Assembly: GCA_015493215.1 (NCBI GenBank)
Contig: WGDP01000205.1
Span: 1-56,400 of the forward strand
Length of the DNA: 56,400 bases
From: Bacteroidales bacterium
Lineage (GTDB): Bacteria > Bacteroidota > Bacteroidia > Bacteroidales > F082
Reading direction: 5' to 3'
Shown: in pieces, positions 7,161 to 47,297 of the stretch
How positions within the stretch are numbered: position 1 is the first letter of the stretch
How the letters are laid out: every line of letters starts with the position of its first letter
Program-made: the position numbers and the translations under genes
The notes under the pieces: model-generated
The model's input: only the letters and a program-made list of their open reading frames with translations
What the model was told of the DNA's origin: nothing
Databases searched by the model: none

Positions 7161-7198
7161 GTTACAAGGGTTTATAACCTCCCTTATAGTTCTACACT

Positions 7199-8421: not shown

Positions 8422-8571
8422 AATATTATTTGTTGCAAGGGTTTAAATATGGTGCACGCCGCATTTTAAAATTATAACTTTTCAAACTATCAATATGTTT
8501 ATTTCGTGTATTAACTTTCATATTTACATATAATTGCGGTATGCACTATATTTATTGACAGAGCCTGTGTA

Positions 8572-9666: not shown

Positions 9667-9717
9667 ACTATTTCTTTATGTTATTGCAAATATACATATT
9701 ATTCTCCGCATAAATAA

Positions 9718-9749
9718 GGAAAATACGGTTTTTATTCTCCGTATTTTTC
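9718..9749 (-). terminator. Possible terminator hairpin downstream of the PHP phosphatase gene
   Basis: Stem gaaaatacgg / ccgtattttc with a 10-nt loop, 34 nt past the minus-strand stop at 9783. The following T-rich tract is weak. Confidence 0.35.
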
Positions 9750-9782
9750 ATTTCACACATTGGCTCTAACAAAAATATAAAA

Positions 9783-10625: not shown

Positions 10626-10628
10626 TTT

Positions 10629-11354: not shown

Positions 11355-11554
11355 GGGCTAAAAGTAGGAAAAAGAGTGAGTAATTCAGATAGAAGTATTG
11401 AACTTGTTTTAAGTCTTTTATTTGAACTACCGCTAACACATTGCATTTCAAATAAAAATTAGCCACATATTCAATAAAAAAAGGGTAAATTTCGCATCCT
11501 TATCAGTGGCAAACGAGTTTTTTATATTTTTGACAAAACATTAAACAAACCGTC

Positions 11555-12169: not shown

Positions 12170-12171
12170 TT

Positions 12172-13143: not shown

Positions 13144-13269
13144 TTTATAAATTGTTACCCTACCCCAACCACCGAAATAAAAGTTTTTATTCCAACGATT
13201 GCCTGTTTTACTTACTTTTCACTACTTTTGGCATCAGATAAAACAAACATTAATTCCGATTACCATCGG

Positions 13270-13300
13270 AGAAATATTGCTGAAAACAATATTTCTTTTA
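13270..13300 (+). promoter_or_regulatory. Terminator-like hairpin in the corA 5' leader (possible attenuator)
   Basis: agaaatattg-ctgaaaa-caatatttct forms a 10-bp stem followed by tttt, 18 nt before the corA ATG. It is preceded by a second hairpin, tccgat-tacc-atcgga (13255-13270), and by a TACTTTTG -7 box at 13223-13230. Confidence 0.35.
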
Positions 13301-13317
13301 ACATAGGAGATTAACCT

Positions 13318-14229: not shown

Positions 14230-14363
14230 CATTTTCTGCATTTCATAAAAATAGCCTATATTTACAGTCGCAACAAAACCAGAATTACAGAAGCTAAATT
14301 TCCCAAAGTTTAAACCGATGACAATCGATTCGTGTCGATTGCCGCAATATACTCACATCCGGC

Positions 14364-33802: not shown

Positions 33803-35152
33803 ATGAACAACAAAAATCTGCAATTTAACAAGCAAAATGCTATTTTATTAGGACTGGCAGCAATCTTTTTTGCCCTGTTTTTAACCACTGTTTCGGGTTG
33901 TAAACACGACCCCTACATAAACCCCGACACGCCACCCAGCATAAGCAATAACTGTGATGCTGACACTGTTTATTTTCAAAATGTTATTTTACCACTTTTG
34001 GTAACCAATTGTGCCACATCGGGTTGTCACGACAAAAATACGCACAAAGAGGGTGTAATTCTTACTGATTACAGTTCCATAATTAACACCGGAGGCATTA
34101 ACATCACCAACCCTTCCGACAGTAAAATATACCGGCAGTTAAACAAAACTGACGACGACAGGATGCCTCCGCCGCCGGCAAACGCTTTTACCGAATCTCA
34201 AAAAAACAGCCTCCTTACATGGATTGAACAAGGAGCAAAGAACAACGAATGCGTTGAAAATACCGAATGCGACACCTCTAACGTTACCTTTAACGGCAGT
34301 GTTGTTCCCATTTTTGAAAACAACTGCTACGGATGCCACAGCCAACCTACCCCTGCCGGTAACATTGATTTAAAAAATACCGACGATTTGGCTCGCATTG
34401 TCAATAATGGTGCACTGGCCGGTTCGGTATTACATCAGGCAGGTTATTCTCCCATGCCAAAAGGATATAACATGACCCAATGTGAGGTCAGAACCATTGT
34501 TATATGGGCAAACGATACTGTCTTCCCCGGTGGTGGTGGCGGTGGTGGTGGAAACCCCGACCCCTGCGATCCGGATACCACTTATTTTCAAAATACCGTT
34601 TTGCCGTTGTTGGTTTCCAATTGTGCCACTTCGGGATGCCACAATCAGCAATCGCACGAACACGGAGTTATTTTAACCGACTATGCTTCAATTATTCAAA
34701 CAGCGGAGGTAAAACCCGGCGACCCGTCAGGAAGTAAACTGTATAAAGTTCTTTTTGGCGGCGACAAAAGAGACGATGATATAATGCCTCCCCCGCCTGC
34801 CAGCCCGTTTAGTGCTGAACAAAAGCAAATAATTTACGACTGGATAAGCCAGGGAGCATTAAACAACAGTTGCAACAGCGGTTGCGATACATCCACCGTT
34901 ACTTTTTCGGGAACAATTTGGCCGCTTATGCAAACATGGTGTACAGGATGCCACAGCGGAAGCAATGCCGGCGGAAACATTCACATCGAAAATTATAATG
35001 ATGTGGTTGCCATTGCCAACAATGGTAAGCTAATGGGTACGGTTTCCCACGCTCCCGGCTATGTGCCCATGCCTAAAAACGGCGACAAATTTTCGGATTG
35101 TCAAATAGCTGAAATCCGAATCTGGATCGAAAACGGAACACCTAATAATTAA
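33803..35152 (+). CDS. Secreted lipoprotein with four cytochrome-c-like modules (2 x CX4CH, 2 x CXXCH), internally duplicated
   Basis: Lipobox TVSGC and an A-B-(Gly8)-A-B module order. The A module is YFQN.(I/V)LPLLV.NCATSGCH...GVILTDY.SII...MPPPP. The B module is CDTS.VTF.G...P......C.GCHS......GNI....Y.D...I.NNG.L.G.V.H..GY.PMPK. It resembles the planctomycete cytochrome C (PSCyt1-like) domain. Confidence 0.65.
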   Translation: MNNKNLQFNKQNAILLGLAAIFFALFLTTVSGCKHDPYINPDTPPSISNNCDADTVYFQNVILPLLVTNCATSGCHDKNTHKEGVILTDYSSIINTGGINITNPSDSKIYRQLNKTDDDRMPPPPANAFTESQKNSLLTWIEQGAKNNECVENTECDTSNVTFNGSVVPIFENNCYGCHSQPTPAGNIDLKNTDDLARIVNNGALAGSVLHQAGYSPMPKGYNMTQCEVRTIVIWANDTVFPGGGGGGGGNPDPCDPDTTYFQNTVLPLLVSNCATSGCHNQQSHEHGVILTDYASIIQTAEVKPGDPSGSKLYKVLFGGDKRDDDIMPPPPASPFSAEQKQIIYDWISQGALNNSCNSGCDTSTVTFSGTIWPLMQTWCTGCHSGSNAGGNIHIENYNDVVAIANNGKLMGTVSHAPGYVPMPKNGDKFSDCQIAEIRIWIENGTPNN

Positions 35153-35163
35153 AGCTTCATACA

Positions 35164-35535
35164 ATGAATAAATTGATAATGATTGCAGGCTTGTTTGGAG
35201 TACTGCTGTTAAGTTCGTGCTACTACGACAATATGGAAGACCTTTATCCTGATACGGGAGGGGTATGCGACACAACCAACGTTACCTTTTCGCAAACCGT
35301 TTTACCTGTTCTACAATCACATTGTACAGGTTGCCATAGTGGAAGTGCCCCTTCGGGAAATATCTCTATTGTAAATTATAACGATGTTGTTCTGTTGGTT
35401 CATAGTGGCAGGCTTTTGGGAACTATCCGGCACGAACAGGGTTACTCACCCATGCCAAAAGGTGGCAACAAACTCTCCAATTGCGATATTGCAAAGCTGG
35501 AGAAATGGATTTCAGATGGCATGCCTGACAATTAA
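35164..35535 (+). CDS. Small lipoprotein with one CXXCH cytochrome-c-like module (paralog of the B module)
   Basis: Lipobox LLLSSC, then CDTTNVTFSQTVLPVLQSHCTGCHSGSAPSGNISIVNYNDV...GYSPMPKGGNKLSNCDIAKLEKWISDG, which is collinear with the B modules of the upstream gene. Confidence 0.65.
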   Translation: MNKLIMIAGLFGVLLLSSCYYDNMEDLYPDTGGVCDTTNVTFSQTVLPVLQSHCTGCHSGSAPSGNISIVNYNDVVLLVHSGRLLGTIRHEQGYSPMPKGGNKLSNCDIAKLEKWISDGMPDN

Positions 35536-35570
35536 CGCTTTTGCATTACGCAACTAAAAAAAATATAACG

Positions 35571-35990
35571 ATGATAAAAAAAATAATTCTGGCAATATTA
35601 ATACTTGGTATACTTGGTGCCCTGTATGGTTGGTTTTTTGTTTACAACAAACCCCATACCAATTTTGAAAAAAGCAAACCCGATTTTGAGGTAACCGCCA
35701 CCGGCTTATATAACGATTACGTTTCGGGAAAAGGAAACCGTTACAACGGGAAAGTGTTAAAATTAACAGGAACCGTTAAAAAAACAGATGATGGCGATAC
35801 GCTGGTAACGCTGGTTTTTGTTTTTAACGAAGGAATGTTTGGCGACGAAGGAATAAGATGCACACTGTTACCAAAATATAACCCGCAGATTCGTAAATTA
35901 ACCCTGCCCGCTACAATAACACTAAAAGGATTTTGTGCCGGATACAACGGAACCGATGTTGTTTTAGAACAGTGCAGTTTATTAAAGTAG
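35571..35990 (+). CDS. Membrane-anchored OB-fold protein (tRNA_anti-like family)
   Basis: N-terminal anchor MIKKIILAILILGILGALYGWFFVYNKPH, then ...YNGKVLKLTGTVKK...TLVTLVF, the usual layout of the Bacteroidota tRNA_anti-like OB-fold family. Confidence 0.5.
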   Translation: MIKKIILAILILGILGALYGWFFVYNKPHTNFEKSKPDFEVTATGLYNDYVSGKGNRYNGKVLKLTGTVKKTDDGDTLVTLVFVFNEGMFGDEGIRCTLLPKYNPQIRKLTLPATITLKGFCAGYNGTDVVLEQCSLLK

Positions 35991-36008
35991 TTTATTAATT
36001 ATAATTAT

Positions 36009-36569
36009 ATGAATATGAAAAGAATATTGGTTGTTTTAGCGGTGTTATTATCATTTACCGTTAGCACACAAGCACAACGATACATCACTAAATCGGGTAA
36101 TATTACCTTTTTTTCTGACGGGCCGCTTGAAAAAATAGAAGCTGTTAACAACAAAGTAAATGCTGCACTCGATTCACAAAGCGGCATGTTTGTTTTTAAA
36201 GTTTTAATGAAGTCGTTTGTTTTTGAAAAGGCGTTGATGCAAGAGCATTTTAACGAAAATTATGTTGAAAGCGACAAGTATCCCGTGGCCACATTCAAAG
36301 GAAAAGTGACTAATATAAGTGATGTTAATTTTAATAAACCGGGCGATTATCAGGCTAAAGTTACCGGACAGCTTACCATTCACGGGCAAACCCACCCGGT
36401 AAAAACAACAGGTACTTTTACAGTTTATGACAAAGGAGTAAAAGGAAAGTCGCAGTTTACCATAAAACTGATAGATTACAACATCGAAATTCCATCCATA
36501 GTTTCGGGTAAAATTGCCAAAGAAATATTAATTACCGTAAATATCGACCTTAAACCGTTAAAACAATGA
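36009..36569 (+). CDS. YceI-family (polyisoprenoid-binding) periplasmic protein
   Basis: Signal peptide followed by a YceI-like eight-strand lipocalin pattern: GNITFFSDGPLEKIEAVNNKVNAALD ... ATFKGKVTNI ... LTIHGQTHPV ... FTIKLIDYNI. Confidence 0.8.
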   Translation: MNMKRILVVLAVLLSFTVSTQAQRYITKSGNITFFSDGPLEKIEAVNNKVNAALDSQSGMFVFKVLMKSFVFEKALMQEHFNENYVESDKYPVATFKGKVTNISDVNFNKPGDYQAKVTGQLTIHGQTHPVKTTGTFTVYDKGVKGKSQFTIKLIDYNIEIPSIVSGKIAKEILITVNIDLKPLKQ

Positions 36570-37462
36570 TAAAAGGATTAATTACAATTGCAGCCCTGTT
36601 TATGCTTTCCCTTCAGGCAACAATGGCACAGGATGATATGATGAATCTTTTCGACAGCCAACCCGTTACCGAATATACATCAGCTACATTTAAAAGCACC
36701 AATGTGGTTATCGGCCAATCGGTTAAAGTTCCGGCAAAAGGAACCATGCTGTTAAATATTCAGCACCATTTTGGCCCTGTAAATTCGGGATTTTATAACT
36801 TTTTCGGATTTGACCAGGCTGTAACACGCCTCGGGCTAAGATATGGCGTTACCGACTGGTTGGCCATTGGCATTGGACGCACAACCCAAAACAAAACATG
36901 GGACGGGTCGTTAAAAGTAAAGCTCCTGCGCCAAAGCAGCGGGGCAAGGGTTATGCCTGTAACTGTTACCTATTTTGGCCTCATGGGGGTTATATCCCTT
37001 AAAAACCCTGAAAATAACCGCTACGCCTATTTCGCAAACAGACTTTCTTATGTAAATCAATTAATTATCGCTCGAAAATTCAGTTCTGCTTTGTCGCTAC
37101 AGCTTATCCCAAGTTATGTACATTGGAACCTTACAGAAACCAAAGCAGACCCCAACGACATCCTTTCACTTGGTGCTGCAGGACGGATTAAATTATCGAA
37201 TCGAATTAGTTTTAATTTTGAGTATCATTACGTACTAACCCAAAAAATTGCCGACGCTTATCACAACTCGCTTTCGTTGGGCATTGATATTGAAACAGGC
37301 GGCCATGTCTTTCAGCTGTTTTTAACCAATTCGGCAGCCATTACCGAGCAATATTTTATTCCCTACACCGATGGCGACTGGCTTAAAGGAGACATTCATA
37401 TAGGGTTCAACATCATCAGAACCTTTACCATTGTAAAGCCAAAAGAGTTTGCTAAATACTAG
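36566..37462 (+). CDS. Outer-membrane beta-barrel protein (DUF5777-like)
   Basis: Signal peptide (SLQATMAQ), alternating beta-strand pattern and the segment NIQHHFGPVNSGFYNFFGFDQAVTRLGLRYG. Its start overlaps the yceI stop (ATGA). Confidence 0.5.
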   Translation: MIKGLITIAALFMLSLQATMAQDDMMNLFDSQPVTEYTSATFKSTNVVIGQSVKVPAKGTMLLNIQHHFGPVNSGFYNFFGFDQAVTRLGLRYGVTDWLAIGIGRTTQNKTWDGSLKVKLLRQSSGARVMPVTVTYFGLMGVISLKNPENNRYAYFANRLSYVNQLIIARKFSSALSLQLIPSYVHWNLTETKADPNDILSLGAAGRIKLSNRISFNFEYHYVLTQKIADAYHNSLSLGIDIETGGHVFQLFLTNSAAITEQYFIPYTDGDWLKGDIHIGFNIIRTFTIVKPKEFAKY

Positions 37463-37483: not shown

Positions 37484-38119
37484 TTAGCAGCCTCCCGATG
37501 CGGCTTTCTCTTTTTTCTTGCGGCGAACCTTTACTTTTTTTGTGGTTTTAGTACTGGTTTCATTGGCAACAGTTCCCGATTTTTTGGCCACTTCGGCAAA
37601 ATCGTATTTGGCAATGCCTTTTAAACAGGTTTTTTCTGTTTTCTGTAAATTATCTTTGTGTGATGCGTAATAGTTATACCCACCCAGCAGCACAAAAGTA
37701 TTTTCGTATCCTATCTGCCGGAATAACATCCAGGCACCATTGGCCTGCAGTTGGTCGTCGTGATAAAAAACCACTTTAACGCCGCTTTTTTTCCATTGAT
37801 CCATCTGTTTAATGTTATCTTTTTCCAGCAACTTAACGGCTGTAATGTTGATGGATCCGGGAATATGGCCTCTGGCAAAATCAAAATTATTTCTAATGTC
37901 AATTAATACCACTTCTCCCGATTTATCGTTGAGCACCTTTGCCAACTCATAAGGATGAAAACAACCCTTATGGCCTATTACCATATCCACTGTTTGCTGT
38001 GGTGTTAAAGCATATTTAAATCGTGGTTTTTTCATGGTTATCCATCCAAAAACAATAACCAATGCAAAAAGCAAAATGGTAATTAATGTTCGTTTTGGGT
38101 TTCTTTCGTGTACATGCAT
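37484..38119 (-). CDS. Membrane-anchored rhodanese-like protein without canonical active-site Cys; basic C-terminal tail ending SGGC
   Basis: N-terminal TM helix and rhodanese fold markers (VVLIDIRNNFDFARGHIPGSINI ... VVFYHDDQLQANGAW). The catalytic-loop Cys position holds His. The C-terminus is KVRRKKKEKAASGGC*. Confidence 0.7.
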   Translation of the reverse strand: MHVHERNPKRTLITILLFALVIVFGWITMKKPRFKYALTPQQTVDMVIGHKGCFHPYELAKVLNDKSGEVVLIDIRNNFDFARGHIPGSINITAVKLLEKDNIKQMDQWKKSGVKVVFYHDDQLQANGAWMLFRQIGYENTFVLLGGYNYYASHKDNLQKTEKTCLKGIAKYDFAEVAKKSGTVANETSTKTTKKVKVRRKKKEKAASGGC

Positions 38120-38140
38120 AACTAATGTTTTAAAATATGA

Positions 38141-38761
38141 TTAACAACCTCCTGAAGCGGCTTTTTCTTTTTTCTTTCTTCTTACCTTTATCTTGGCTTT
38201 TTTAACACCGGTATCGGTTTTAATGCTGTTTCCTCCGGTAAAGTACATTCCGGCGGCTTTGCGAAACTGATAAGTTTCAAAAGCCGTTTTTGGTGCCGTT
38301 TCAGGAGGTTCAACCGGGTTAATGATGGTTTCTATCCAACAATTAAGGCCACCCTTCATCACATAAATGTTTTTGTAACCAAGCCTGGTTGAAATTACCC
38401 ACGCCTGATCGGACATAATATCATCGTTACTAAAAAATACGGCATTCATATCCTCAATGCCAAGGTTATCCTGGCCTTCCGGTGTAAGGATGTCTTTTAA
38501 CGGAACATTAACGGCATCGGGAAGCGAAAATTTATCGTATTCATCGGCAGGCCGTACATCAATCAACTCAAGGGTAGGGTCGTGTTCGATAATCATTTTT
38601 GCCACCTGATCGGTAGTTACGTACCTAGATGGCTGTGTAATATCAAGCAACAATTTTTCTGGCTTAACTTCATGACTAACCAACTGCTTTTTAGGAACAA
38701 AAAAGGTTCCCAGAGCCAAAAGCAGCATCAAAACGGTAAGAAATATATAATTTTTATTCAT
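38141..38761 (-). CDS. Membrane-anchored/secreted rhodanese-like protein without canonical active-site Cys; identical C-terminal tail ending SGGC
   Basis: N-terminal hydrophobic segment and rhodanese markers (LELIDVRPADEYDKFSLPDAVNVPL ... AVFFSNDDIMSDQAW). The catalytic-loop Cys position holds Ser. The C-terminus is KVRRKKKEKAASGGC*. Confidence 0.7.
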   Translation of the reverse strand: MNKNYIFLTVLMLLLALGTFFVPKKQLVSHEVKPEKLLLDITQPSRYVTTDQVAKMIIEHDPTLELIDVRPADEYDKFSLPDAVNVPLKDILTPEGQDNLGIEDMNAVFFSNDDIMSDQAWVISTRLGYKNIYVMKGGLNCWIETIINPVEPPETAPKTAFETYQFRKAAGMYFTGGNSIKTDTGVKKAKIKVRRKKKEKAASGGC

Positions 38762-38765
38762 AATA

Positions 38766-39368
38766 TTAGAATTTATATTCTTTGGTATTTTTTCTTACTT
38801 TCTTTTCTATTTCGGCACTAACCCAAAAAGCGGCAAGAGCAATTACCGTAAACCCAAAGGCAAACCATGGAGCTGCAATGCCGGTTACATCGGTAAGTGT
38901 AACATTGCCCATGCTGCCACTGTAATAGTAATCTTTAAACAGCGGAAAGCTCTCTCCGAAAATAAAGATTCCTATAAATAGACCGATGGCAAAGAAAAGG
39001 GCATCCATTTTACCAATGGCAATGGCGGTAAAACTGGTGCCGGGGCAAAAACCGCCCATGACAAAGCCAATGCCCATGATTACCGATCCCAGTATCATTG
39101 GCGACAGATAGGTTGGCAAAATAAATATTTTAGACAGGTCGAGCCATCCAAAATAATCGAAATAGAGTAATCCGACCATTGCAACAATGACAGCGGTAAA
39201 AAAGACGCGAAGCACCACAAAGTTGTAGCCATAAAAAACACCGGCTAAATTTCGGGATGACGAAAATCCGGAAGCTTCGAGCAAAAAACCGAAAGCGATA
39301 CCAATTAATATGGCAATTACAAAGTTCCAGTCTCCGGTAATTATTTCATTTGGTATTAAAGGTCCCAT
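38766..39368 (-). CDS. YeeE/YedE-family sulfur-compound transporter, half-size subunit
   Basis: Polytopic, Gly-rich membrane protein with the conserved Cys motif MGGFCPGTS typical of the YeeE/YedE (sulphur transport) family. Confidence 0.8.
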   Translation of the reverse strand: MGPLIPNEIITGDWNFVIAILIGIAFGFLLEASGFSSSRNLAGVFYGYNFVVLRVFFTAVIVAMVGLLYFDYFGWLDLSKIFILPTYLSPMILGSVIMGIGFVMGGFCPGTSFTAIAIGKMDALFFAIGLFIGIFIFGESFPLFKDYYYSGSMGNVTLTDVTGIAAPWFAFGFTVIALAAFWVSAEIEKKVRKNTKEYKF

Positions 39369-39388
39369 TGTACTATATTTTTATAAGA

Positions 39389-39922
39389 TTATATCCACAG
39401 TTTTCTAAAAAAGTAAGCCACGGCATAACCGGTTCCGAATATTCCGAGCATAACAATTACACCGCCAAACGAGAAGGATGCAGAACCCACCAAAGCAGCA
39501 CCGCTGGTACAACCTCGTCCAAACTGGCTGCCAAAACCAAACAGTGCGCCGCCAAGGACGGCAAAAATCAGACGTTTTGAACTTGTAGTGTGTTTACCAT
39601 GTTCAATTCTGAATTTTTTAATCCTTCCGTAAATAACACCCGATAACAATCCTCCTATTAATATTCCAAACGATTCATAAACCAGCCAGTTGTTCATGGG
39701 TGATTTATCTTTGGGAATATATTTACTAAAGTAGGGATTGTTTTCGGCATGTTGCGGAGCAATTGCGTTTACAGTAGTTACAACAGTACTTTTAACCGAG
39801 CCACTGGCACCAAGGCCGCGTCCGGTAATATAAAAAGTAACAACAACCAACAGCCCCAGTAAAACGCCCCCGAAATAGGGGTTCAGATAGTGAGGCTTTT
39901 CATTAATTTTATGTTTATTCAT
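39389..39922 (-). CDS. YeeE/YedE-family sulfur-compound transporter, half-size subunit
   Basis: Polytopic membrane protein with GRGLGASG and the FGRGCTSGAALVG Cys motif of the YeeE/YedE family. It pairs with the adjacent half. Confidence 0.8.
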   Translation of the reverse strand: MNKHKINEKPHYLNPYFGGVLLGLLVVVTFYITGRGLGASGSVKSTVVTTVNAIAPQHAENNPYFSKYIPKDKSPMNNWLVYESFGILIGGLLSGVIYGRIKKFRIEHGKHTTSSKRLIFAVLGGALFGFGSQFGRGCTSGAALVGSASFSFGGVIVMLGIFGTGYAVAYFFRKLWI

Positions 39923-39939
39923 CGTTCAATGTATTTAAA

Positions 39940-40881
39940 TCAATATAAATATCTTGTAATCTGGCCTGCTTCAAGAATTACGAACCGGAAAATAAGGCCG
40001 CCCAATAGAATCAGAAATGAAGGTATCCAGACCGGTACATGGTATCCGCGCAGTTCAAAAATTTCGAGGGTAGCCGGAAAAGCCAGCCCCAGCAACACTA
40101 CGAAAACCCAGAAAGTAACGGTAAACTCACCACCCAAAAACAGTTTGGCAGCTTCGTGAGCAGCTTCCGATCCGGCCTGAAATCCCATAATCATGTGGAT
40201 GATAAAAAACAGCTCCACAAAAATAAATATCAGATCGATGCGGGTAAGCACCTTACGTTCGTATTTGCTTTTCGACATCCATATAATGGCTGCCAGTCCG
40301 GTTGAAAACCCGGAAACTAAAAACAGCGGGCCTAAAATGGAAGTATTCCACAATGGGCGGGCGTTAAAGGCCGACAATAAAATACCGGTATAAACACCAA
40401 GTATTACCGACAATATCATCATAATCCAGGCCATAGCCTTACGGTATTTTATCACAAAAGCTTCAAAGGTATCGAGCCAGGCAAAGGGCCATTTCCATTT
40501 CGGGAACACCTCTTTCAAGTAGGAGGCAGCCCAAACAATTGATAACGGAGTAATGGCCATCAACACCCAGGCACCCCACGACATGGGCGACTGAAAACGG
40601 ATAATGGTATAAAGCCTCCAAAAATAAAGTTTATGGTGAAGGTCCAAAAACAGGGCTCCTAAACCAATAACCAGGATAAACGGAACTAACATGGGCGCCC
40701 ATTTAATGGTTGCTTTCATGTCGCGTTCCTTGTGCATTACATAAAAATAGCCGGCAAAAAACAAGATACCTGCTGCGAGGCCACCCAAAAACAGGTAGAG
40801 TGGAATTTCCCACGTCCATAAGTGGAGGTAGGGGTCGATATGTGGAATATTACGTCCGCTGACAAATAATTCTTCTTTCAT
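39940..40881 (-). CDS. psrC: NrfD/PsrC-type polytopic membrane quinol-interacting subunit
   Basis: 313 aa with ~8 TM helices and an N-terminus (W.WEIPLYLFLGGLAAG) characteristic of NrfD-family anchors. It lies directly downstream of the FeS and molybdopterin subunits. Confidence 0.8.
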   Translation of the reverse strand: MKEELFVSGRNIPHIDPYLHLWTWEIPLYLFLGGLAAGILFFAGYFYVMHKERDMKATIKWAPMLVPFILVIGLGALFLDLHHKLYFWRLYTIIRFQSPMSWGAWVLMAITPLSIVWAASYLKEVFPKWKWPFAWLDTFEAFVIKYRKAMAWIMMILSVILGVYTGILLSAFNARPLWNTSILGPLFLVSGFSTGLAAIIWMSKSKYERKVLTRIDLIFIFVELFFIIHMIMGFQAGSEAAHEAAKLFLGGEFTVTFWVFVVLLGLAFPATLEIFELRGYHVPVWIPSFLILLGGLIFRFVILEAGQITRYLY

Positions 40882-40897
40882 TTTCCTGATATTTTAA

Positions 40898-41431
40898 TTA
40901 GGTAAGAAAATATAATTGTGGTTTGGTACCTGCTTCGGGAGCCAATACTTTCCATTTTCTGTTTTTCAATATCTTCGACACATCGCTGTTGGGGTCATCC
41001 AAATCACCAAAATGGAGGCAATGTGTAGGACAAACATCCACACAGGCCGGATTTTCGCCATCGGTAACACGGTGTACACAAAAGGTACATTTATCAACAT
41101 AACCTTCCGGGTGGGGATAACGGGCATCGTAAGGGCACGACTCAATACAGGCACCACAGCCAATACACTCGTCATGGGTTACCAATACGATACCGCCATC
41201 AACAATATGACTGGCGCCCGTGGGGCAGCACCTTACACAGGGAGCGTTTTCGCAATGATTGCATCGCTCCGAACGTAATTCAATTTCCAATTTAGGATAG
41301 GTACCTGCCACGTTTTCCACAATCCAGTCGCGGCAATAGCCGTGGGGTACATTATTTTCGGTTTGACAGGCAACTACACAGTCGCCACATCCGACACATT
41401 TTTTGGTGTCAACCGCCATTGCGTATCTCAT
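40898..41431 (-). CDS. psrB: 4Fe-4S ferredoxin-type electron-transfer subunit (PsrB/PhsB-like)
   Basis: Four Cys clusters (CVGCGDCVVAC, CNHCENAPCVRCCP, CIGCGACIESCP, CTFCVHR...CVDVCP). Its start overlaps the psrA stop by 4 nt. Confidence 0.85.
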   Translation of the reverse strand: MRYAMAVDTKKCVGCGDCVVACQTENNVPHGYCRDWIVENVAGTYPKLEIELRSERCNHCENAPCVRCCPTGASHIVDGGIVLVTHDECIGCGACIESCPYDARYPHPEGYVDKCTFCVHRVTDGENPACVDVCPTHCLHFGDLDDPNSDVSKILKNRKWKVLAPEAGTKPQLYFLT

Positions 41432-43686
41432 GCGTTAACCTCCTTTCCTGGTTTTTCTTTAAGAAATGTAACAAAATTTCCGCGCATTCCGGTGCCGCCC
41501 ATTATTGGATCCATGTGTATTTTACTAACAAGTTTAGAATCGCTGGCACCATGGCCGTAAGCCCGGGTAAGTTTTTTATCGGTATGGCCAAATCCATGCA
41601 CGAGATATACCGAATCCCATCGTATTCGCTCGGTGACTCTGGCTTTTACAGGAAAGTCGGTAACAATTCCATCCTGATTTTTTAACCAAATATATTGGCC
41701 GTTTTCAATATCCCAAAGTTTGGCAACTTTCGGGTTAATCCACACGCTGTTTTCTTTCATCAAATCCCAAAGGTTATGGTTATTTGATGTTCTGGAAAAG
41801 GTGTGCATGGGTGCTCTGCCGTAATTCAGCCTGTAGTAACCGTCAGCAGGCTCTTCATGATGGGTATATTTAGGCATCGGGTCGTATCCCTCCATTTCCA
41901 GCTCGGTAGAATAAAGCTCAATTTTTCCTGTGTTGGTATTAAACTCAAAATCTTCAAGGTTTTGAAGGAAATAGAGGTCATCAAATTCGCGGTTGAATTT
42001 TTTAACCCCGATACGTTTCATCTCCTCCAATGAGGAACCAACTTTTTTCAACTGCCAATCAAGGACATCTTCGTAGTTTTCGTAATTGAAATAATCTCCC
42101 AAACCTAATCTTTTGGCCAATTCTTTTGCAATCCACCAGCCCGGTTTGGTTTCGTGTTTTGGTTCGGCAGCAGGCATTCGCAATGCGATGTATGGTTCCC
42201 GGTGGGGTGACGTACGAATGGGGTCGTAGCGTTCGAGGTAGGTGCATTCGGGAAGCACCACATCAGCCAGTTGAACAATGTCCATGGGCATGGTGTCGAT
42301 AACTACTAAGAAATCGAGATGACTGATGGCTTCCAGTGTTTTTTTCTGATCGGGCAACGAAGCCATCAGGTTGGTGCCATAAACTATCCATCCGCGCAGG
42401 TGGCAATCCAAATCTGCGTTAGGAATGGATGCGTCGCAAATTCCGGTTGACAACACCTCTGTTACAAGTTTATATTTACCGGGAGGATAAGCATCTCTCC
42501 ACGATCTTTTTGGTTTAGGATAAGGTGGTGCCGGGTATTTGGGCAGATGTACCTTTTCAGGGTTATAAAATCCGCCACGACGGCCCCAGGAGCCTAACAG
42601 GGCATTTACAATGGCAATGGCTCTTGACCTTTGGGTATCATCGCCGTACCAGGTAACATGTCTTCCGGGATGCACAAGCACTGCAGGTGATGCAGCGGCC
42701 ATTTCACGAGCTGTTTTGCGGATAACATTGGGGTCGATGGTGGTAATACCGTAGGCCCACTCAGGCGTCATGTTTTTAACATGTTCTTTTAACTCTTTAA
42801 AGCCAAAAGTATATTTTTCAACATAAGCTTTATCATATAAATCTTCGTAAATAATAACATGCATCCAAGCTAACAAGAGAGCAATGTCAGTGGCGGGTTT
42901 AATGGGTAACCAGTATTTTGACTTGCTGGCGGCAGTGCTAAATCGTGGGTCAACGGTAATAATAGTTGCCCCCTGGTCTATGGCCTCCGACATTTCCTGT
43001 ATTTGGCCATTGTGCATATTTTCGCCAATGTGCGAACCAATTAAAACCAGACATTTGGTATCGCGGATATCGGTTCTTTCGGGCGACATAACATCTTCGC
43101 CATAAGTAGCTGTAAAAGCAACCTCGCGAGGTCCGCGGCATTGAGCAAACGAAGGTGCAGTAATGTTGGGTGAACCGTAAGCTTTTACCAGATGGCTAAA
43201 ATGTTTTCCGCCCGTTCCGTGCGAAAACAGTGCTAAACACTCAGGGCCATGTTCTAACCGAAGTTTATTCATTTTTTCAGCAACAAGGTTAAGTGCTTCA
43301 TCCCAGCTTGCTTTCCTGAAATACTGAGTGCCGTCGGCTTTTGTTTCTCTAATCAGAGGCGTTTGCAACCGGTCCTCGTCCCAATACATGCCTACTCCGC
43401 CGGTTCCACGCGGACAGAAGCGGCCGTTGCTGTGTGGGTCATCCTTATTACCAATTATTTTACGAATATTGCCCTTTTTATCTACATAAGTAAAACCTGC
43501 GCACTTCCAAAAGCAAACTTCGCAGAAAGTGGGATAATTGGTAAGCTCCTCATCACTCACAGGTGATGTGTCACCATCGGCAACAAACTGGGCAGTTACA
43601 CTGTCCCAGCTCAGAGCATGTAGGCCAATAGCGGCTGCTCCTACCCCTGCTGCACTAATTTTTATAAAATCCCTTCTTGTTTTCAT
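41428..43686 (-). CDS. psrA: Molybdopterin oxidoreductase catalytic subunit, polysulfide/thiosulfate reductase-like (PsrA/PhsA family), Tat-exported
   Basis: Twin-arginine signal MKTRRDFIKISAAGVGAAA, N-terminal FeS motif CEVCFWKC...C(PRG), and a candidate Mo-ligand Cys in SFAQCRGPR. Size is ~750 aa with a psrABC gene order. Confidence 0.85.
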   Translation of the reverse strand: MKTRRDFIKISAAGVGAAAIGLHALSWDSVTAQFVADGDTSPVSDEELTNYPTFCEVCFWKCAGFTYVDKKGNIRKIIGNKDDPHSNGRFCPRGTGGVGMYWDEDRLQTPLIRETKADGTQYFRKASWDEALNLVAEKMNKLRLEHGPECLALFSHGTGGKHFSHLVKAYGSPNITAPSFAQCRGPREVAFTATYGEDVMSPERTDIRDTKCLVLIGSHIGENMHNGQIQEMSEAIDQGATIITVDPRFSTAASKSKYWLPIKPATDIALLLAWMHVIIYEDLYDKAYVEKYTFGFKELKEHVKNMTPEWAYGITTIDPNVIRKTAREMAAASPAVLVHPGRHVTWYGDDTQRSRAIAIVNALLGSWGRRGGFYNPEKVHLPKYPAPPYPKPKRSWRDAYPPGKYKLVTEVLSTGICDASIPNADLDCHLRGWIVYGTNLMASLPDQKKTLEAISHLDFLVVIDTMPMDIVQLADVVLPECTYLERYDPIRTSPHREPYIALRMPAAEPKHETKPGWWIAKELAKRLGLGDYFNYENYEDVLDWQLKKVGSSLEEMKRIGVKKFNREFDDLYFLQNLEDFEFNTNTGKIELYSTELEMEGYDPMPKYTHHEEPADGYYRLNYGRAPMHTFSRTSNNHNLWDLMKENSVWINPKVAKLWDIENGQYIWLKNQDGIVTDFPVKARVTERIRWDSVYLVHGFGHTDKKLTRAYGHGASDSKLVSKIHMDPIMGGTGMRGNFVTFLKEKPGKEVNA

Positions 43687-43777
43687 CCTTAATATATTTA
43701 ATGAACTATCACTTTGTCAATATGATATAAACAGTAATGGTTGTATATATGTATAGGTGTTTATATGATATTTGTCA

Positions 43778-43785
43778 CAAAATTA
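43778..43785 (-). promoter_or_regulatory. Candidate -7 promoter box (TAATTTTG on minus strand) for the psr operon
   Basis: The plus strand reads CAAAATTA, ~92 nt upstream of the psrA ATG. It is embedded in an imperfect inverted repeat (43773-43802). Confidence 0.3.
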
Positions 43786-44033
43786 TGTAATAATTTGTGA
43801 TAGTACATTGTTTGAACCGAATCTATATTAGGTTTCAAACACCTGATTATAGGTGAGTTATGAATTATGCCTCATATAAAGGGTGAGCTTTAACCCGTTG
43901 GTATTATGCAGATTACATTATTTATTTGAAAAGAAAATAAATTAGATATATTTTTATTGAAGTAATTTGGTTCTAAATTACTAAATGTTATGCTTTAAAC
44001 AAAAGAAGCTACAACTTGTTGGACACTCAAATA

Positions 44034-44061
44034 AAAAGGGCTACCAATCTGGCAGCCCTTT
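44034..44061 (-). terminator. Rho-independent terminator after the cytochrome b-PAS gene
   Basis: On the minus strand, aaagggctgcc-agat-tggtagccc is followed by tttttatttg, about 25 nt downstream of the stop at 44086. It separates the octaheme/cyt b unit from the psr operon. Confidence 0.55.
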
Positions 44062-44085
44062 CCTTCTTATTACCCAATTATTAAC

Positions 44086-45615
44086 CTAAACTTGCGCTTT
44101 TTTAAGCTCTTCTTCAGCTAGTTTGCGGTCTGTTTTATCAACAATATACCCTTCAACACCAACTATTTTACCATTTTCCACAACAGGAGTCATGGTAATA
44201 GAATGATATCCAATAGAGCCATCTTTACAGTAGCGACGGGTTATTCCCAAAGGAATGGTTTCGCCTTTCATTACTTTTTCAAACGATTTTTTTAGTTTAA
44301 CAAAGTCTTCTTTGGTACGGCTTAATGAATAATGCTTGCCAATAATTTCATCTTTGGAGTCATATTTATAAAGTCGGAGCCAGGTATCGTTAACTTCCTG
44401 ATAAAAACCCTGACTGTCAATACGGAAATAACCCACATCTTTAGATTTGACAATTTGCTCATAAAACACATTGGATTTGTGCTCTGTTGCAATTTTCTTT
44501 TCAAGGGCTTTTTCGGCTTCTACCTGAGGGGTGATGTCAATAATAAACCCTTCTAATCCTATAATATTTCCATCTTTATCTTTAATAGGTGCAGCTGAAA
44601 CGGTATGATAGCCAATGGTTCCGTCTTTACAAACGCGCTCAACCCTTTCGCCGGTAATTATTTCACCTGAAAGAATCTTATCAACTAATGCGGTTATCTG
44701 TTTTTTGCCTTCGGGGGTTCTGTCAAGCGTTACATCTGTTCCAATAACACTTTTTTTATCGGTACATTTGTAAAGCTTCAGCCAAACTTCGTTAACCTCC
44801 TGATACTTGTGATCTTTACCAATCCGGAAGTATCCCACATTGGAGCTAAGCAGTTTTTCGCGAAGTCGTGTTGATTCGGTGTTGATACCCAGCTTTTCAA
44901 CCACATCATCGAAAGCAGTTTCAAACACGCCCTCTTTTTCTATTGTTCCCCGGCCACTGATACCTTTTCTACTGGTAATTAGGGCAACTTTCAGGTTCTC
45001 TTCCAAAGCAAGTTCCGCATCTTCATCCGACATCTCTTCCCAACCGGTAAGCATTGCTTTGATAGCAGAAAGTGGCCTGTGTCCGGTAGTTGTTAAATAA
45101 ACATGGCCAATAACAAAACCTAACAAAAGAAAGGCTCCAAAAGTATGAAGGTAAGCAACAGGTTGGAGGCTTCCCACAACACTTTGGTCAACCAGCGAAA
45201 CATAATACATGTACACCAAACCGCTAAGCACGACGATTGGAATAATCAATATGCGAAGGCCTAAATAGGTCATGCGCTGTAACGGATTAAACTTATTGTA
45301 AACCGTTTTACGGGTGGGGTGGGGTGCATTACTAAAAATGCCGGTGATATAATACCTGATTTGTGCTTTTAGTAACTTGGTTGACGGAACGTACTGACGC
45401 CACTCGCCGGTTGTCATATTCCAAAACTGTGTAAAAATAATCAGAATGATAAATGACCAGGCCAGATTGCGGTGAATGAAAACTGCTTTTTCATATCCCA
45501 GCAATGTGTAAGTACCATGAACTTCAAAACCGGTAACAGCCAGCAATAAAATCAGCAAGGCCTGTGTCCAGTGCCAGAAACGTTCGTATCCTTTATATAT
45601 TAATACTTTTTTCAT
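44086..45615 (-). CDS. Fusion protein: PhsC/Ni-Fe-hydrogenase-type di-heme cytochrome b (4 TM) plus two tandem PAS domains
   Basis: The N-terminal ~200 aa carry ERFWHWTQALLILLLAVTG, IHRNLAW, NPLQRMTYLG and LHTFGAFLLLGFVIGHVYL (PF01292-like). Two ~120-aa repeats follow, starting VGYFRIGKDHKYQEVNEVWLKLYK and VGYFRIDSQGFYQEVNDTWLRLYK, each ending in a PAS-type ...DG(T/S)IGYH...G.(I/V)(I/V)G(L/V)EG(F/Y)I(I/V)D(I/K)T. Confidence 0.75.
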   Translation of the reverse strand: MKKVLIYKGYERFWHWTQALLILLLAVTGFEVHGTYTLLGYEKAVFIHRNLAWSFIILIIFTQFWNMTTGEWRQYVPSTKLLKAQIRYYITGIFSNAPHPTRKTVYNKFNPLQRMTYLGLRILIIPIVVLSGLVYMYYVSLVDQSVVGSLQPVAYLHTFGAFLLLGFVIGHVYLTTTGHRPLSAIKAMLTGWEEMSDEDAELALEENLKVALITSRKGISGRGTIEKEGVFETAFDDVVEKLGINTESTRLREKLLSSNVGYFRIGKDHKYQEVNEVWLKLYKCTDKKSVIGTDVTLDRTPEGKKQITALVDKILSGEIITGERVERVCKDGTIGYHTVSAAPIKDKDGNIIGLEGFIIDITPQVEAEKALEKKIATEHKSNVFYEQIVKSKDVGYFRIDSQGFYQEVNDTWLRLYKYDSKDEIIGKHYSLSRTKEDFVKLKKSFEKVMKGETIPLGITRRYCKDGSIGYHSITMTPVVENGKIVGVEGYIVDKTDRKLAEEELKKAQV

Positions 45616-45635: not shown

Positions 45636-47297
45636 TTAATGCTTCTTTTTACTGCTTGTAACTCTTAAGAATCCATGAATGCTTACTCCTAATAAAACAA
45701 GAATAAGAAAGATTAAGCCTGCGTTATCGAGCAGTGAACTTTTGTCTCTGCCGGGAAGGTAAAAACCGGTCAGGTTTTTTAACCTGCTGTCGGTGGCGTT
45801 ATGACAGTCGGCACATTCCAAGGCTTTATCTGAAGGCGAAACTTCATGACTCAGAGGCCAGATGGATTCCGTTTTCAGGAAAGAGTATTGTCCGCTAAAA
45901 GGTAAGCCGATATAGTCCATCCCTTTGGTACAGGCAACTTTCCAATTATAATCGGCCCAAAGGGCACCGCTTCCTTTTTCATGGCTGGCGAGCTTAGGTT
46001 GAATCAGGAGCATATTTACCGGGTCATAAGGTTGGGTTCCTCTCATGATTTTCACGGGCCATATTTTAGAGGGATGGTTGGGATCTGCCGGGTTAACATT
46101 ATCCTGATAAGAACCAAACAAAGGATTTAATATCAGCGGGTGAATAGTATCTTTAATTTTATCGTGAAGCAAGTGGTGATCAGCTGTTCCGTTGAACCAC
46201 ACATATTCAGGTTTTACATTTTTTTTAAAAACTGCACCACCATGACGGGAGTCATACTCGATGTCAACATCTTTATAGGTCTTTCCATCGTATGTGTAAG
46301 TGTGTCCGGGTATCTCTTCATCAAATATCGGTTTTCCGTTTTTATCCATTTTGGCAGCCGTGTTCCATGTCCAAATAATTTTGGTATGAAACATTTTCGC
46401 GTAAGTAGGAATATGACACGTTTGGCAAGCGATAGTTTTAAAGTGGTTGTTGAGCAATTCACTTTTATGCGGTTTAGCCGTGTGGCATTCCACACAGGTT
46501 GCTCGGTTGTTCGCGGAAGAAGCAACGGAATAGGCATGTCCCGTGATGTTATGATTTTCTGTTTTGTGACAATCCTGACAACGCATGTTTTTGGCATCTT
46601 TTCCTTTGGAAGCCATGTGGACATCAACATCGCGGGTGCAATTCAACAAGCCCATTTCCAAATCACCGTGTTTTACATTATTACCACCGCCACCAACAAA
46701 ATGGCAACCGCCACAATTATTTTTACGCGGTTGACCCACATGTTGGGCAATATTGTTTAAATCGGTACCCACGGCAGGCAAACCGGCTTTGGGATTGTTG
46801 GAACTTGTACATGGATTTGATTTGTGATAAGTTCCGGTATTATCGTGACAAACCACACAATCGATGTTGTTCTGGTTATGGAAATCAAAATTCTTATCAC
46901 CGTATCCATAGCCCGCGTGACACATGGAGCAGAGATTTTCATTCGAGTTGACTCCAATACAAAAATCATTCAGTAAATTCTTTTTTCCCAGGTTAAACAC
47001 GCCTCTTCCCGGAATAGTATCGCTTTGTTCCCATTTCCAGTGGGGTGTTTTCATAAACTCTTTTCCGCGGCCGTTGTGGCAACTCAGGCATGCTTTGGTC
47101 ATATCCTGAGGTGTTTCAAATTTTTGTTGTAAAACGGCAAATTTAGAGTGATCCACCGGAATGGAATCGTGTTTTAAGCTAATTTCCTTTGACGGGAAAT
47201 AATCCCTGTCCTTATCACCATTGTAGTTAAATACAATCCAAAGAATAATAATCCAGGGAATGATGATGATAAAAATAATTTCAAGTATCTTTTTCAT
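45636..47297 (-). CDS. Octaheme c-type cytochrome (tetrathionate-reductase Otr / multiheme nitrite-hydroxylamine reductase superfamily) with N- and C-terminal TM segments
   Basis: Eight CXXCH motifs (CLSCH, CSMCH, CVVCH, CGGCH, CQDCH, CVECH, CQTCH, CADCH). Seven lie in the first ~300 aa and the eighth lies ~190 aa further on. There are hydrophobic helices at both termini. Confidence 0.8.
   Translation of the reverse strand: MKKILEIIFIIIIPWIIILWIVFNYNGDKDRDYFPSKEISLKHDSIPVDHSKFAVLQQKFETPQDMTKACLSCHNGRGKEFMKTPHWKWEQSDTIPGRGVFNLGKKNLLNDFCIGVNSNENLCSMCHAGYGYGDKNFDFHNQNNIDCVVCHDNTGTYHKSNPCTSSNNPKAGLPAVGTDLNNIAQHVGQPRKNNCGGCHFVGGGGNNVKHGDLEMGLLNCTRDVDVHMASKGKDAKNMRCQDCHKTENHNITGHAYSVASSANNRATCVECHTAKPHKSELLNNHFKTIACQTCHIPTYAKMFHTKIIWTWNTAAKMDKNGKPIFDEEIPGHTYTYDGKTYKDVDIEYDSRHGGAVFKKNVKPEYVWFNGTADHHLLHDKIKDTIHPLILNPLFGSYQDNVNPADPNHPSKIWPVKIMRGTQPYDPVNMLLIQPKLASHEKGSGALWADYNWKVACTKGMDYIGLPFSGQYSFLKTESIWPLSHEVSPSDKALECADCHNATDSRLKNLTGFYLPGRDKSSLLDNAGLIFLILVLLGVSIHGFLRVTSSKKKH

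Follow-up and report, generated by a model that had tools for sequence, protein, structure and literature searches.

The 56,400-nt stretch of contig WGDP01000205.1 (assembly GCA_015493215.1, from a Bacteroidales bacterium of the F082 lineage) is referred to here, in its whole length, as the window. It contains seven genes between positions 37484 and 43686, in the order psrA, psrB, psrC, yeeE-a, yeeE-b, rhd1 and rhd2. These genes form one conserved cassette of three parts: the PsrABC reductase, the YeeEa/YeeEb pair and the rhodanese-domain proteins Rhd1 and Rhd2. An earlier note on this DNA had described a tightly spaced operon, and the open reading frames do share the minus strand, the gaps from psrA to rhd2 being -4, 16, 17, 20, 4 and 21 nt. 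Its gene labels agree with the Pfam and NCBIfam domain calls; its description of the system as self-contained is not established by the analysis.

The distribution of the cassette was determined by a scan with Rhd2-type sequences as query and one genome per species. This gave 80 loci, where the gene order was checked by tblastn with the window proteins. The order PsrA-PsrB-PsrC-YeeEa-YeeEb-Rhd1-Rhd2, with all genes on the same strand, is found at every one of the 66 loci that have enough flanking sequence. The remaining 14 loci are cut by contig ends or are fragmented, and none of them is a counter-example. The arrangement is far beyond chance. Carriers are mostly Marinilabiliales/Bacteroidales (Prolixibacteraceae, Lentimicrobiaceae and Ca. 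Sulfidibacterium), and a few loci are in metagenome-assembled genomes (MAGs) labelled Chlorobiota or Neomarinimicrobiota. Most hosts are fermentative heterotrophs of sulfidic sediments; cultured carriers include Draconibacterium, Maribellus, Mangrovibacterium and Chondrinema litorale. The same gene order is also present in divergent clades where the second rhodanese protein starts with MKELxKTRRL instead of MHVHE, and on one 2.6-kb contig the YeeE-Rhd-Rhd end of a divergent cassette is visible.

In Chondrinema litorale, a cultured member of the Cytophagales, the cassette is on a 310-kb plasmid (NZ_CP111047, positions 6998–12935, locus L086), approximately 4 kb downstream of an IS4 transposase gene; the PGAP names of its genes are generic only. 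This plasmid setting hints at horizontal transfer. The second rhodanese protein of C. litorale is 138 aa and has no arm of the kind described below, while the first retains one, ending ..GKKKKKVQGGCS. A separate observation concerns locus L087 (GCA_054682395), where the region directly upstream of the cassette (positions 1–2282) has divergently oriented genes for a Rieske protein and for a cytochrome b/multihaem fusion of 914 aa.

psrA (41428–43686, minus strand) encodes a 752-aa catalytic subunit of the molybdenum or tungsten bis-pyranopterin guanine dinucleotide (Mo/W-bisPGD) type, with matches to PF04879, PF00384 and PF01568, each above its cut-off. The earlier note's reading of PsrA as exported by the twin-arginine translocation (Tat) pathway agrees with the motif TRRDFIK at residues 3–9 (RRDFIK at 4–9). 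The Tat profile PF10518 scores 19.8 bits, slightly below its cut-off, and 63 of 66 orthologues have the motif. An N-terminal iron-sulfur motif is formed by C55-x2-C58-x3-C62...C91. Cysteine ligation of the metal, also proposed earlier, is supported by a HMMER alignment that places PSFAQC(183)RGPREVA of the window on PSVSLCTAPREVA of Thermus; Cys183 is a putative ligand at the position of Thermus PsrA Cys173, which we take to be the molybdenum ligand. Arg342 is the equivalent of Thermus R332, the arginine of an Arg-His pair that follows this cysteine, and its GRH..WYG motif is found in 66 of 66 orthologues.

The best match of PsrA among solved structures is PsrA of T. thermophilus (2VPW-2VPZ), with 668 bits and an E value of 1e-199 over residues 4–743. 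Acetylene hydratase scores 178 bits, formate dehydrogenases 178 or less and ArrA 133, so PsrA does not fall with a non-sulfur clade of the MopB enzymes. The NCBIfam scores are 475 bits for PhsA, 267 for Fdh, 228 for DmsA and 159 for ArrA. The protein is not to be named PhsA, since 475 bits is under the cut-off of 694 for the PhsA equivalog NF012032 and enterobacterial PhsA shares only about 30% of its residues. By search scores, PsrA belongs to the PsrA/PhsA/SrrA family and is nearest to the Thermus type. An enzyme of the Arr or Ttr type is unlikely. The caution of the earlier note on the substrate stands: polysulfide, thiosulfate, tetrathionate and selenite are not separable within this family, and in published phylogenies the reductases of polysulfide, thiosulfate and selenite are likewise inseparable from one another and from the archaeal sulfur reductases. 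For tetrathionate, a Psr homologue of Shewanella sp. ANA-3 is reported by the title of a 2026 paper to have a part in its respiration.

psrB (40898–41431, minus strand) overlaps psrA by 4 nt and encodes a 177-aa electron-transfer subunit (PF13247, 78.5 bits) with no signal peptide of its own. It has 19 cysteines and the four complete motifs expected of the four-cluster [4Fe-4S] protein that had been claimed, i.e., 12/15/18/22, 57/60/65/69, 89/92/95/99 and 115/118/130(134)/138. PsrB identity between loci is 80–97%. psrC (39940–40881, minus strand) encodes a 313-aa integral-membrane protein that had been described as an NrfD-type anchor, and it does match PF03916 with 152 bits, where residues 21–309 cover profile positions 10–311 of 313; it is predicted to oxidise quinol. 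The motifs and profile matches show PsrABC to be a molybdoenzyme that is predicted to be Tat-exported, periplasm-facing and quinol-linked.

Pseudo-rhodaneses with Gly-Gly-Cys arms and a split channel

rhd1 (38141–38761, minus strand) and rhd2 (37484–38119, minus strand) encode signal-anchored proteins of 206 and 211 aa with rhodanese domains (PF00581, 54 and 63 bits). Both lack the canonical catalytic cysteine, in keeping with their earlier description as non-canonical. The active-site loop of Rhd1 is FFSNDD (38420–38437, minus strand), with serine at the catalytic position, and that of Rhd2 is FYHDDQ (37751–37768, minus strand), with tyrosine there. The position was defined by alignment as that of GlpE Cys65. 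Across the loci, 57 Rhd1 proteins have Ser there and 4 have Ala, and 61 Rhd2 proteins have Tyr, with a single Cys exception. An AlphaFold2 (AF2) model of Rhd2 displays a transmembrane (TM) helix at residues 8–30, a rhodanese core at 40–160 with pLDDT (predicted local distance difference test) values of 80–94, and about 32 disordered residues at the end. Foldseek matches this model to single-domain rhodaneses with a TM-score of approximately 0.7 at 16–24% identity.

A cysteine is present instead at the very C-terminus. The arm tip KVRRKKKEKAASGGC ends both Rhd1 (38144–38188, minus strand; terminal Cys206, codon 38144–38146) and Rhd2 (37487–37531, minus strand; terminal Cys211, codon 37487–37489). 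Homologues of Rhd2 end in Gly-Gly-Cys in 112 of 113 cases, and the terminal cysteine is the sole cysteine in 37 of 77 Rhd1 and 44 of 80 Rhd2 proteins. Sequence alignment shows it as the only conserved cysteine of Rhd1 and Rhd2 and the invariant residue of the arm. From the models, both proteins appear as a single-pass anchor and a catalytically dead rhodanese domain followed by a disordered arm of approximately 30–45 residues that carries this cysteine at its end. A family profile search (clusters at 50% identity or less, E values of 1e-30 or better) shows that such arms are widespread. Among the best 150 profile matches are 128 representatives of single-domain size, of which 107 have a tip of GGC plus zero to two residues; nearly all of the others end ..EGC. 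The armed pseudo-rhodaneses are a large family, the members of which have no more specific database name than 'rhodanese-like domain-containing protein'.

The tail need not be a carrier. It might instead direct processing, lipidation or sorting of the protein, or sense redox state or metals in order to control the reductase or the channel, with the rhodanese domain as a scaffold. The dead rhodanese domain would fit such a role, as would an arm that is of low complexity and varies between clades from basic to poly-Glu, and the His-x-His-Glu N-terminus of Rhd2 could bind a metal. We know of no sorting or lipidation signal of the GGC form. Against this explanation, the cysteine is the one residue of the arm that never changes and is flanked by glycine as in SoxY, the armed proteins occur strictly together with Cys-relay channels and reductases of the sulfur type, and two matched copies are hard to reconcile with a sorting tag. 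A non-carrier tail is therefore considered very improbable.

The N-terminus of Rhd2 is a feature in its own right. Its first eight residues, MHVHE.NP (38090–38119, minus strand), are invariant in the Marinilabiliales clade and are predicted to be cytoplasmic. A conserved palindrome in the DNA or RNA was ruled out as the cause because synonymous positions vary freely; the constraint is thus on the peptide, which could be a metal-binding or protein-contact motif.

A comparison of Rhd1 and Rhd2 in the window shows 28% identity overall, yet the last 15 residues are identical. Within the last 16 residues, 15 are identical, 7 of these share the codon, and 11 of 48 nt differ. This matching is general. 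For the 13 residues before GGC in 76 genomes, Rhd1 and Rhd2 are 71.5% identical within a genome and 48.0% between genomes, while the domains of the two proteins are 23% identical. Orthologous arms compared between genomes are also only 48% identical, a contrast of paralogues and orthologues that is independent of phylogeny; in a permutation that ignores phylogeny, none of 5000 permutations reaches the observed value. The arms are matched even where they are radically different from that of the window, e.g., RRKKKTVTEGGC and PKPVVEEEEEEEGC. Both Rhd proteins of locus L087 have the arm PVRRKKKTVTEGGC, and both of locus L089 have VKL[I/L]PKPVVEEEEEEEGC. Recent gene conversion was discounted as the principal explanation for these identical ends on the basis of the nucleotide differences given above and of codon sharing: the fraction of identical arm residues with the same codon is 0.40 within genomes and 0.39 between genomes. 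The simplest reading is that selection on the peptide keeps the two arms nearly identical, and that both would fit one partner surface.

PsrB may offer a lead to that surface, but only a lead. In the 65 complete cassettes among loci L002–L079, the net charge of the arm is negatively correlated with that of PsrB (Spearman -0.53) and positively with that of the Rhd2 domain (Spearman +0.75), both values being uncorrected for phylogeny. PsrB is on this account a candidate for part of the arm docking surface.

The channel is encoded between the reductase and the rhodaneses. yeeE-a (39389–39922, minus strand) encodes a PmpA-like half-transporter of 177 aa that corresponds to the C-terminal half of YeeE (PF04143 positions 176–308 of 310; positions 238–315 of the TsuA model). 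yeeE-b (38766–39368, minus strand) encodes a PmpB-like half-transporter of 200 aa, which represents the N-terminal half and the central helix (PF04143 positions 4–160). The two-piece sulfur transporter that had been noted earlier at this place is thus composed of a C-terminal and an N-terminal half of one family, encoded 20 nt apart. Each half has a single cysteine. Cys138 of YeeEa is in GRGCTSG (GRGCtSGAAL) and its column is 99% conserved in 75 orthologues; Cys108 of YeeEb is in GGFCPGTS and its column is 100% conserved in 75. They match Cys293 and Cys91 of YeeE, respectively, a correspondence that is approximate only because it is taken from model coordinates.

Loop charges averaged over the 75 orthologues give the probable orientation. 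In YeeEa they are +6.2 for inner and -0.7 for outer loops, which predicts both termini inside. In YeeEb the outside segments have -0.6, -1.2 and -2.7 and the C-terminal tail +3.9, which predicts an outer N-terminus and an inner C-terminus. The C-terminus of full-length YeeE is considered cytoplasmic because natural YeeE-YeeD fusions exist. YeeEa and YeeEb are predicted to be an antiparallel pair of the PmpAB/YedE1E2 type, with one invariant cysteine each in the middle of the membrane. The mapping of PmpA and PmpB onto the halves of YeeE, and the absence of the first YeeE cysteine from PmpAB, have been described (PMC11582611). The window halves are longer than those of PmpAB, which are about 130 aa with four TM helices each, and YeeEb displays five hydrophobic segments and a half-helix. 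Full-length YeeE/TsuA is a single chain of nine TM helices that has three relay cysteines, one of them the outer Cys22, and this pattern is absent here. NCBIfam TsuA models score 18–30 bits on the halves against cut-offs of 400–645, and a phmmer search of either half against the PDB gives only noise.

Natural fusions link the channel to the armed rhodaneses. In a Draconibacterium genome the cassette is followed by a second module, which encodes YeeEb joined head-to-tail to a TM-anchored rhodanese, a protein of 399 aa that ends ..KKASGGCS. Fusions of this YeeEb::TM::Rhd-GGC form are present in at least 120 protein clusters, and in 119 of 120 the end is GGC or GGC plus one residue. Carriers include Draconibacterium orientale, Gaoshiqia, Mariniphaga, Flavobacteriaceae and Zixiibacteriota, and the fused rhodaneses have Ser or Ala in place of the catalytic cysteine. 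The existence of these fusions implies that the armed rhodanese is a partner of the YeeE channel. An AF2 model of the fusion displays the expected series of helices and a disordered tip; in a Foldseek search with this model the rhodanese domain dominates and no YeeE match is found.

The fusions also bear on the side of the membrane. The 15 residues before the anchor helix have a mean charge of +3.67 and the 15 after it +0.84, with the bias present in 108 of 118 proteins. The positive flank before the anchor implies that it runs from inside to outside, which would place the rhodanese domain in the periplasm. The unfused family has the same tendency: the flank charges of 127 representatives are +1.86 (N) and +0.05 (C), N being above C in 99 and below it in 13, and the bias holds for Rhd1-like and Rhd2-like subsets. 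The arms of Rhd1 and Rhd2 are predicted to be periplasmic.

A different placement has Rhd1 outside and Rhd2 inside. The two arms would plug both vestibules of YeeEab and form a four-cysteine relay (arm-YeeEb-YeeEa-arm) for sulfur through the membrane, with Rhd2 as an analogue of YeeD/TsuB. Several observations fit. The inverted topologies of the YeeE halves make the two mouths pseudo-symmetric, the cysteine of YeeD is a 'fourth cysteine' of the YeeE relay on the cytoplasmic side, and two paralogues that keep one arm would be explained. In Rhd2 of the MHVHE clade the C-flank is the more positive one in 52 of 99 proteins and the less positive one in 16. The family-wide values for Rhd2-like proteins are the reverse, with +1.90 for the N-flank and +0.26 for the C-flank (N above C in 69, below in 12). 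The Otr module described below has no equivalent of Rhd2, and the second Rhd of Chondrinema has no arm to place inside. Close paralogues that share an architecture also seldom have opposite topologies. An arrangement on opposite sides is held to be quite improbable.

Reductase partners and proposed routes of sulfur

The channel and the armed rhodaneses are also found with a second reductase. In Draconibacterium, including D. orientale, in a Zixiibacteriota genome and in a Flavobacteriaceae MAG, the genes are in the order Otr-cytochrome b-YeeEa-YeeEb::Rhd; the Draconibacterium modules are at 11169–16512 in locus L063 and at 5148–10845 in L081/L082. Thus the module of YeeEab and armed Rhd accompanies two unrelated periplasmic quinol-linked reductases, PsrABC or Otr. 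The Draconibacterium Otr module is followed by a gene for a response regulator of the sigma-54 type (Response_reg and Sigma54_activat), a candidate regulator.

The window has an Otr pair of its own directly upstream of the cassette, from which it is separated by a terminator. Otr (45636–47297, minus strand) is an octahaem c-type cytochrome of 553 aa that covers the full TIGR04315 model with 507 bits against a cut-off of 375. The adjacent gene (44086–45615, minus strand) encodes a 509-aa cytochrome b of the PhsC/Ni_hydr_CYTB type (PF01292) with two PAS domains. It scores 92.6 bits on the NCBIfam model for the cytochrome b of thiosulfate reductase, below the cut-off, and is probably the quinol-oxidising partner of Otr. 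This unit has no YeeE or Rhd genes. Loci L002 and L003 share the layout, and L005 has the cytochrome b-PAS gene on a sequence that ends before Otr. The upstream pair belongs to the same functional theme as the cassette.

The cytochrome b-PAS gene is 86–87% identical in these three loci and has no recognisable output domain; elsewhere, Otr has a cytochrome b partner of about 213 aa in the same position and without PAS domains. The protein may be a redox- or ligand-sensing subunit that oxidises quinol.

The reading preferred here, to which we give an even chance, is that Rhd1 and Rhd2 are carriers similar to SoxY or Sud, whose arms carry sulfur in covalent linkage between the reductase and the channel. 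Sulfur intermediates of SoxY are carried on a C-terminal GGCGG arm, and a secreted rhodanese encoded in the psr operon of Desulfurivibrio is thought to hand sulfur to Psr. In Wolinella, the sulfur transferase Sud feeds Psr. In the cassette, the thiolate at the end of the arm would attack polysulfide, elemental sulfur (S0) or thiosulfate/tetrathionate to give Cys-S-Sn- or Cys-S-SO3-. The slim Ala/Ser-Gly-Gly-Cys tip could then enter the funnel of PsrA, where electrons derived from menaquinol and passed from PsrC through PsrB to the molybdenum would release sulfide from it. The same tip could also enter the outer mouth of YeeEab and stand in for the outer Cys22 of S. thermophila YeeE, so that sulfane sulfur would pass onto the two-cysteine relay of YeeEab for import. 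If both arms fit the same docking sites, they would be expected to stay matched.

There are several points against a shuttle of this kind. A strongly basic arm would be no obvious match for a PsrA funnel that attracts anions. The Psr enzymes of Wolinella and Thermus work without YeeE, and YedE1E2 is functional in E. coli without any Rhd partner. Chondrinema, with a single armed Rhd, indicates that two arms are not essential. The topology is based on the positive-inside rule and the fusion logic only, and the flanks of Rhd2 in the MHVHE clade are ambiguous and slightly opposite (N +0.81, C +1.55). In locus L089 the poly-Glu codons are shared between both arms, which makes local gene conversion possible there. 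The sole complementary charge trend is the one with PsrB, which is weak as well as phylogenetically uncorrected.

A broader form of the proposal is that the split channel and the GGC arms are a portable, protein-borne relay. The reductases would act on sulfur held by an arm and not on a free ion, the arm would thread into the channel for transfer from cysteine to cysteine, and arm and docking sites would co-evolve within each genome; in its strongest form there would be one arm for each side of the membrane. We regard this generalisation as unlikely.

Sulfur could also flow in the reverse direction. Cytoplasmic sulfane sulfur, derived from the breakdown of cysteine or organosulfur compounds or from persulfide stress, would be exported through YeeEab onto the arms and reduced to sulfide by PsrABC or Otr; the cassette would then be a quinol-linked electron sink or a means of detoxification and would not respire external sulfur. 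It would fit this direction that channel and arms are always encoded with a periplasmic reductase, that the cassette has no sulfur-binding outer-membrane or uptake component, and that the hosts are mainly fermenters of sulfidic sediments. The characterised YeeE proteins are importers, however. YedE1E2, the only split pair examined by experiment, requires both central cysteines and was found to import zero-valent sulfur and not to export it, and the cassette has no cytoplasmic donor such as TusA, DsrE or a cytoplasmic rhodanese. Export is for these reasons considered rather improbable.

Selenium instead of sulfur is a further alternative. In a system similar to SrrABCDEF, the PsrA-like enzyme would reduce selenite, the arms would bind selenium as selenotrisulfide or perselenide, and the channel would move selenium. 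SrrA is phylogenetically inseparable from PsrA and PhsA, and the srr operon encodes two rhodanese-domain proteins. There are also weak matches of the YeeE halves to YedE models of the selenium type and of Rhd1 and Rhd2 to the N-terminal part of the model for the selenoprotein TsoB, but these NCBIfam matches have 22–28 bits (E 1e-6 to 5e-5) against cut-offs of 200–805. A paper on Geobacter MccSep was consulted on the TsoB model and has nothing relevant to such a link. No selD, selenoprotein or chaperone of the SrrD type is encoded in or next to the cassette, and SrrE and SrrF are multi-domain proteins of 38–45 kDa, as compared with 23 kDa for the armed proteins. The sister module is paired with an octahaem cytochrome of the tetrathionate reductase family, and the nearest solved relative of PsrA is the Thermus polysulfide/thiosulfate reductase. 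A selenium system is given only a small probability.

A shuttle on protein arms would be of interest for several reasons. How S0 and polysulfide, which are poorly soluble or unstable, are delivered to the buried molybdenum site of Psr has been an open point since the work on Wolinella Sud, and the role of split YeeE/PmpAB channels in energy metabolism is unsettled; the cassette is a candidate answer in one operon. Dead rhodanese domains whose sole conserved cysteine lies at the tip of a flexible tail suggest that sulfur travels on the arms of proteins and not as a free ion, and, if so, a single arm cysteine could serve both reductase and channel. The cassette would give a sulfide-producing respiratory or electron-sink capacity to abundant sediment heterotrophs, the Prolixibacteraceae and Lentimicrobiaceae, which are usually counted as fermenters. 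The matching of paralogous arms genome by genome is an unusually clean signal of co-evolution that could be used in a search for docking sites, and the cultured, facultatively anaerobic Bacteroidota among the carriers make direct testing feasible.

Leader region and flanking genes

The earlier note placed an AT-rich promoter region of about 400 bp in front of the operon. The AT-rich spacer is present upstream of psrA, with a length of 399 bp and 27.6% GC as compared with 43.0% for the operon, while the promoter itself is only inferred. A generic scan for sigma-70 promoters gave 34 matches where 28.4 are expected, which is chance level. Its best -35/-10 match was disregarded because it ends 5 nt 5' of the ATG and the hosts are Bacteroidota. 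The location of the psrA promoter is for this reason inferred from conserved blocks and a -7 box of the Bacteroidota type.

These elements are in the promoter/leader region (43687–44032, minus strand), which has blocks conserved in loci L002, L003 and L005. The -7 element TAATTTTG is at 43778–43785 within conserved leader sequence, a conserved leader block is at 43742–43773, and a conserved box, CTAATTTATTTTCTTTTCAAATAA, is at 43922–43945, all on the minus strand. The two stretches at 43742–43785 and 43922–43945 are strongly conserved among relatives and are candidate regulator sites; one of the two blocks reads CTAATTTATTYTCTTTTCAAATAA, and the other is composed of the -7 box followed by AAATATCATATAAACAYCTATACATATATACA. 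An Rfam search of the psrA leader gave nothing near or above a gathering score, and no regulator gene adjoins the cassette in the window.

The terminator of the upstream unit, which had also been proposed earlier, is a hairpin with a U-tract at 44033–44063 (minus strand), between the Otr/cytochrome b unit and the leader. It has a folding energy of -25.4 kcal/mol and a z value of -4.5, and none of 200 shuffled sequences folds equally well. Compensatory changes that affect the stem are seen in three relatives. A generic terminator scan was at chance level, with 11 matches where 10.2 are expected.

The flanks of the cassette in the window are unrelated to it: one has genes for glycosyltransferases, and the other has those for YceI, DUF5777 and cytochromes c. 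The latter genes belong to a convergent cluster downstream (33803–37462, plus strand). It encodes a 449-aa protein with multiple cytochrome c domains (PSCyt1, cbb3-type), small secreted proteins, a YceI-like protein and a DUF5777 membrane beta-barrel, and it might represent a further periplasmic or outer-membrane redox unit. The cluster is not conserved beside the cassette in the other loci.

Comparison with known systems

The searchable literature contains no account of this combination of genes or of a family of anchored pseudo-rhodaneses with GGC arms, nor of the YeeEb fusion, the link to Otr or the matching of arms within a genome. Annotations of the armed rhodaneses, of the fusions and of the cassette have generic names only. 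The earlier note had overlooked the terminal GGC arm, the matched arms, the partnership of Rhd and YeeE, and the theme shared with Otr and cytochrome b.

PsrABC of the window corresponds, subunit by subunit and in gene order, to the enzymes of Thermus and Wolinella; its PsrA has a Tat signal, its PsrB four clusters, and its PsrC is an anchor of the NrfD type. Wolinella Sud and the rhodanese of Desulfurivibrio resemble Rhd1 and Rhd2 as proteins of rhodanese fold that feed Psr. The window carriers differ in that they are membrane-anchored, have the cysteine at a disordered C-terminus and not in the loop, occur as a matched pair, and share their operon with a split YeeE.

The closest known relatives of the channel are PmpA/PmpB, i.e., YedE1/YedE2, of Serratia, Cupriavidus and Sinorhizobium. 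There, too, adjacent genes encode PF04143 halves with one cysteine each, and a heterodimer is expected. The window halves are distinguished by their greater length, by the fifth helix of YeeEb and by their association or fusion with an armed rhodanese; unlike YedE1E2, which is found beside a persulfide dioxygenase, they are part of a respiratory reductase operon. The YeeE-YeeD system (TsuA-TsuB) for thiosulfate uptake likewise combines a Cys-relay channel with a small partner on which it depends and whose cysteine prolongs the relay, and natural fusions are known. However, YeeD is a cytoplasmic protein of TusA fold with a CPxP motif, and in the fusions it is joined to the cytoplasmic C-terminus of a full-length YeeE. 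In the systems described here the channel is split, and its rhodanese-fold partner follows an additional TM helix, which is predicted to put it on the periplasmic side. None of the seven cassette proteins has a TusA-family match in Pfam or NCBIfam.

The resemblance to SoxY is one of principle only: a periplasmic carrier with a cysteine in a glycine-rich C-terminal motif on a mobile arm. The arm of the window proteins ends in GGC-COOH, or GGCS in fusions, and not in GGCGG. The carrier is of rhodanese and not of SoxY fold, is membrane-anchored, is associated with reductases and not with the oxidative Sox enzymes, and has no SoxZ-like gene in its cassette. The Srr system of Bacillus selenitireducens MLS10 combines a PsrABC-like MopB enzyme with two rhodanese-domain proteins. 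As compared by description, Srr differs from the cassette in its chaperone SrrD, in rhodaneses of 38–45 kDa and in having no YeeE-type genes. The Otr of the window is similar to other members of the Otr family (TIGR04315), which are periplasmic reductases of sulfur and nitrogen oxyanions, and it passes the cut-off of the family; its cytochrome b with two PAS domains sets it apart from known Otr systems. Enzymes of the Psr type, rhodaneses that donate sulfur, split YeeE channels and carriers with a cysteine arm are each known separately; in this cassette they are encoded together.

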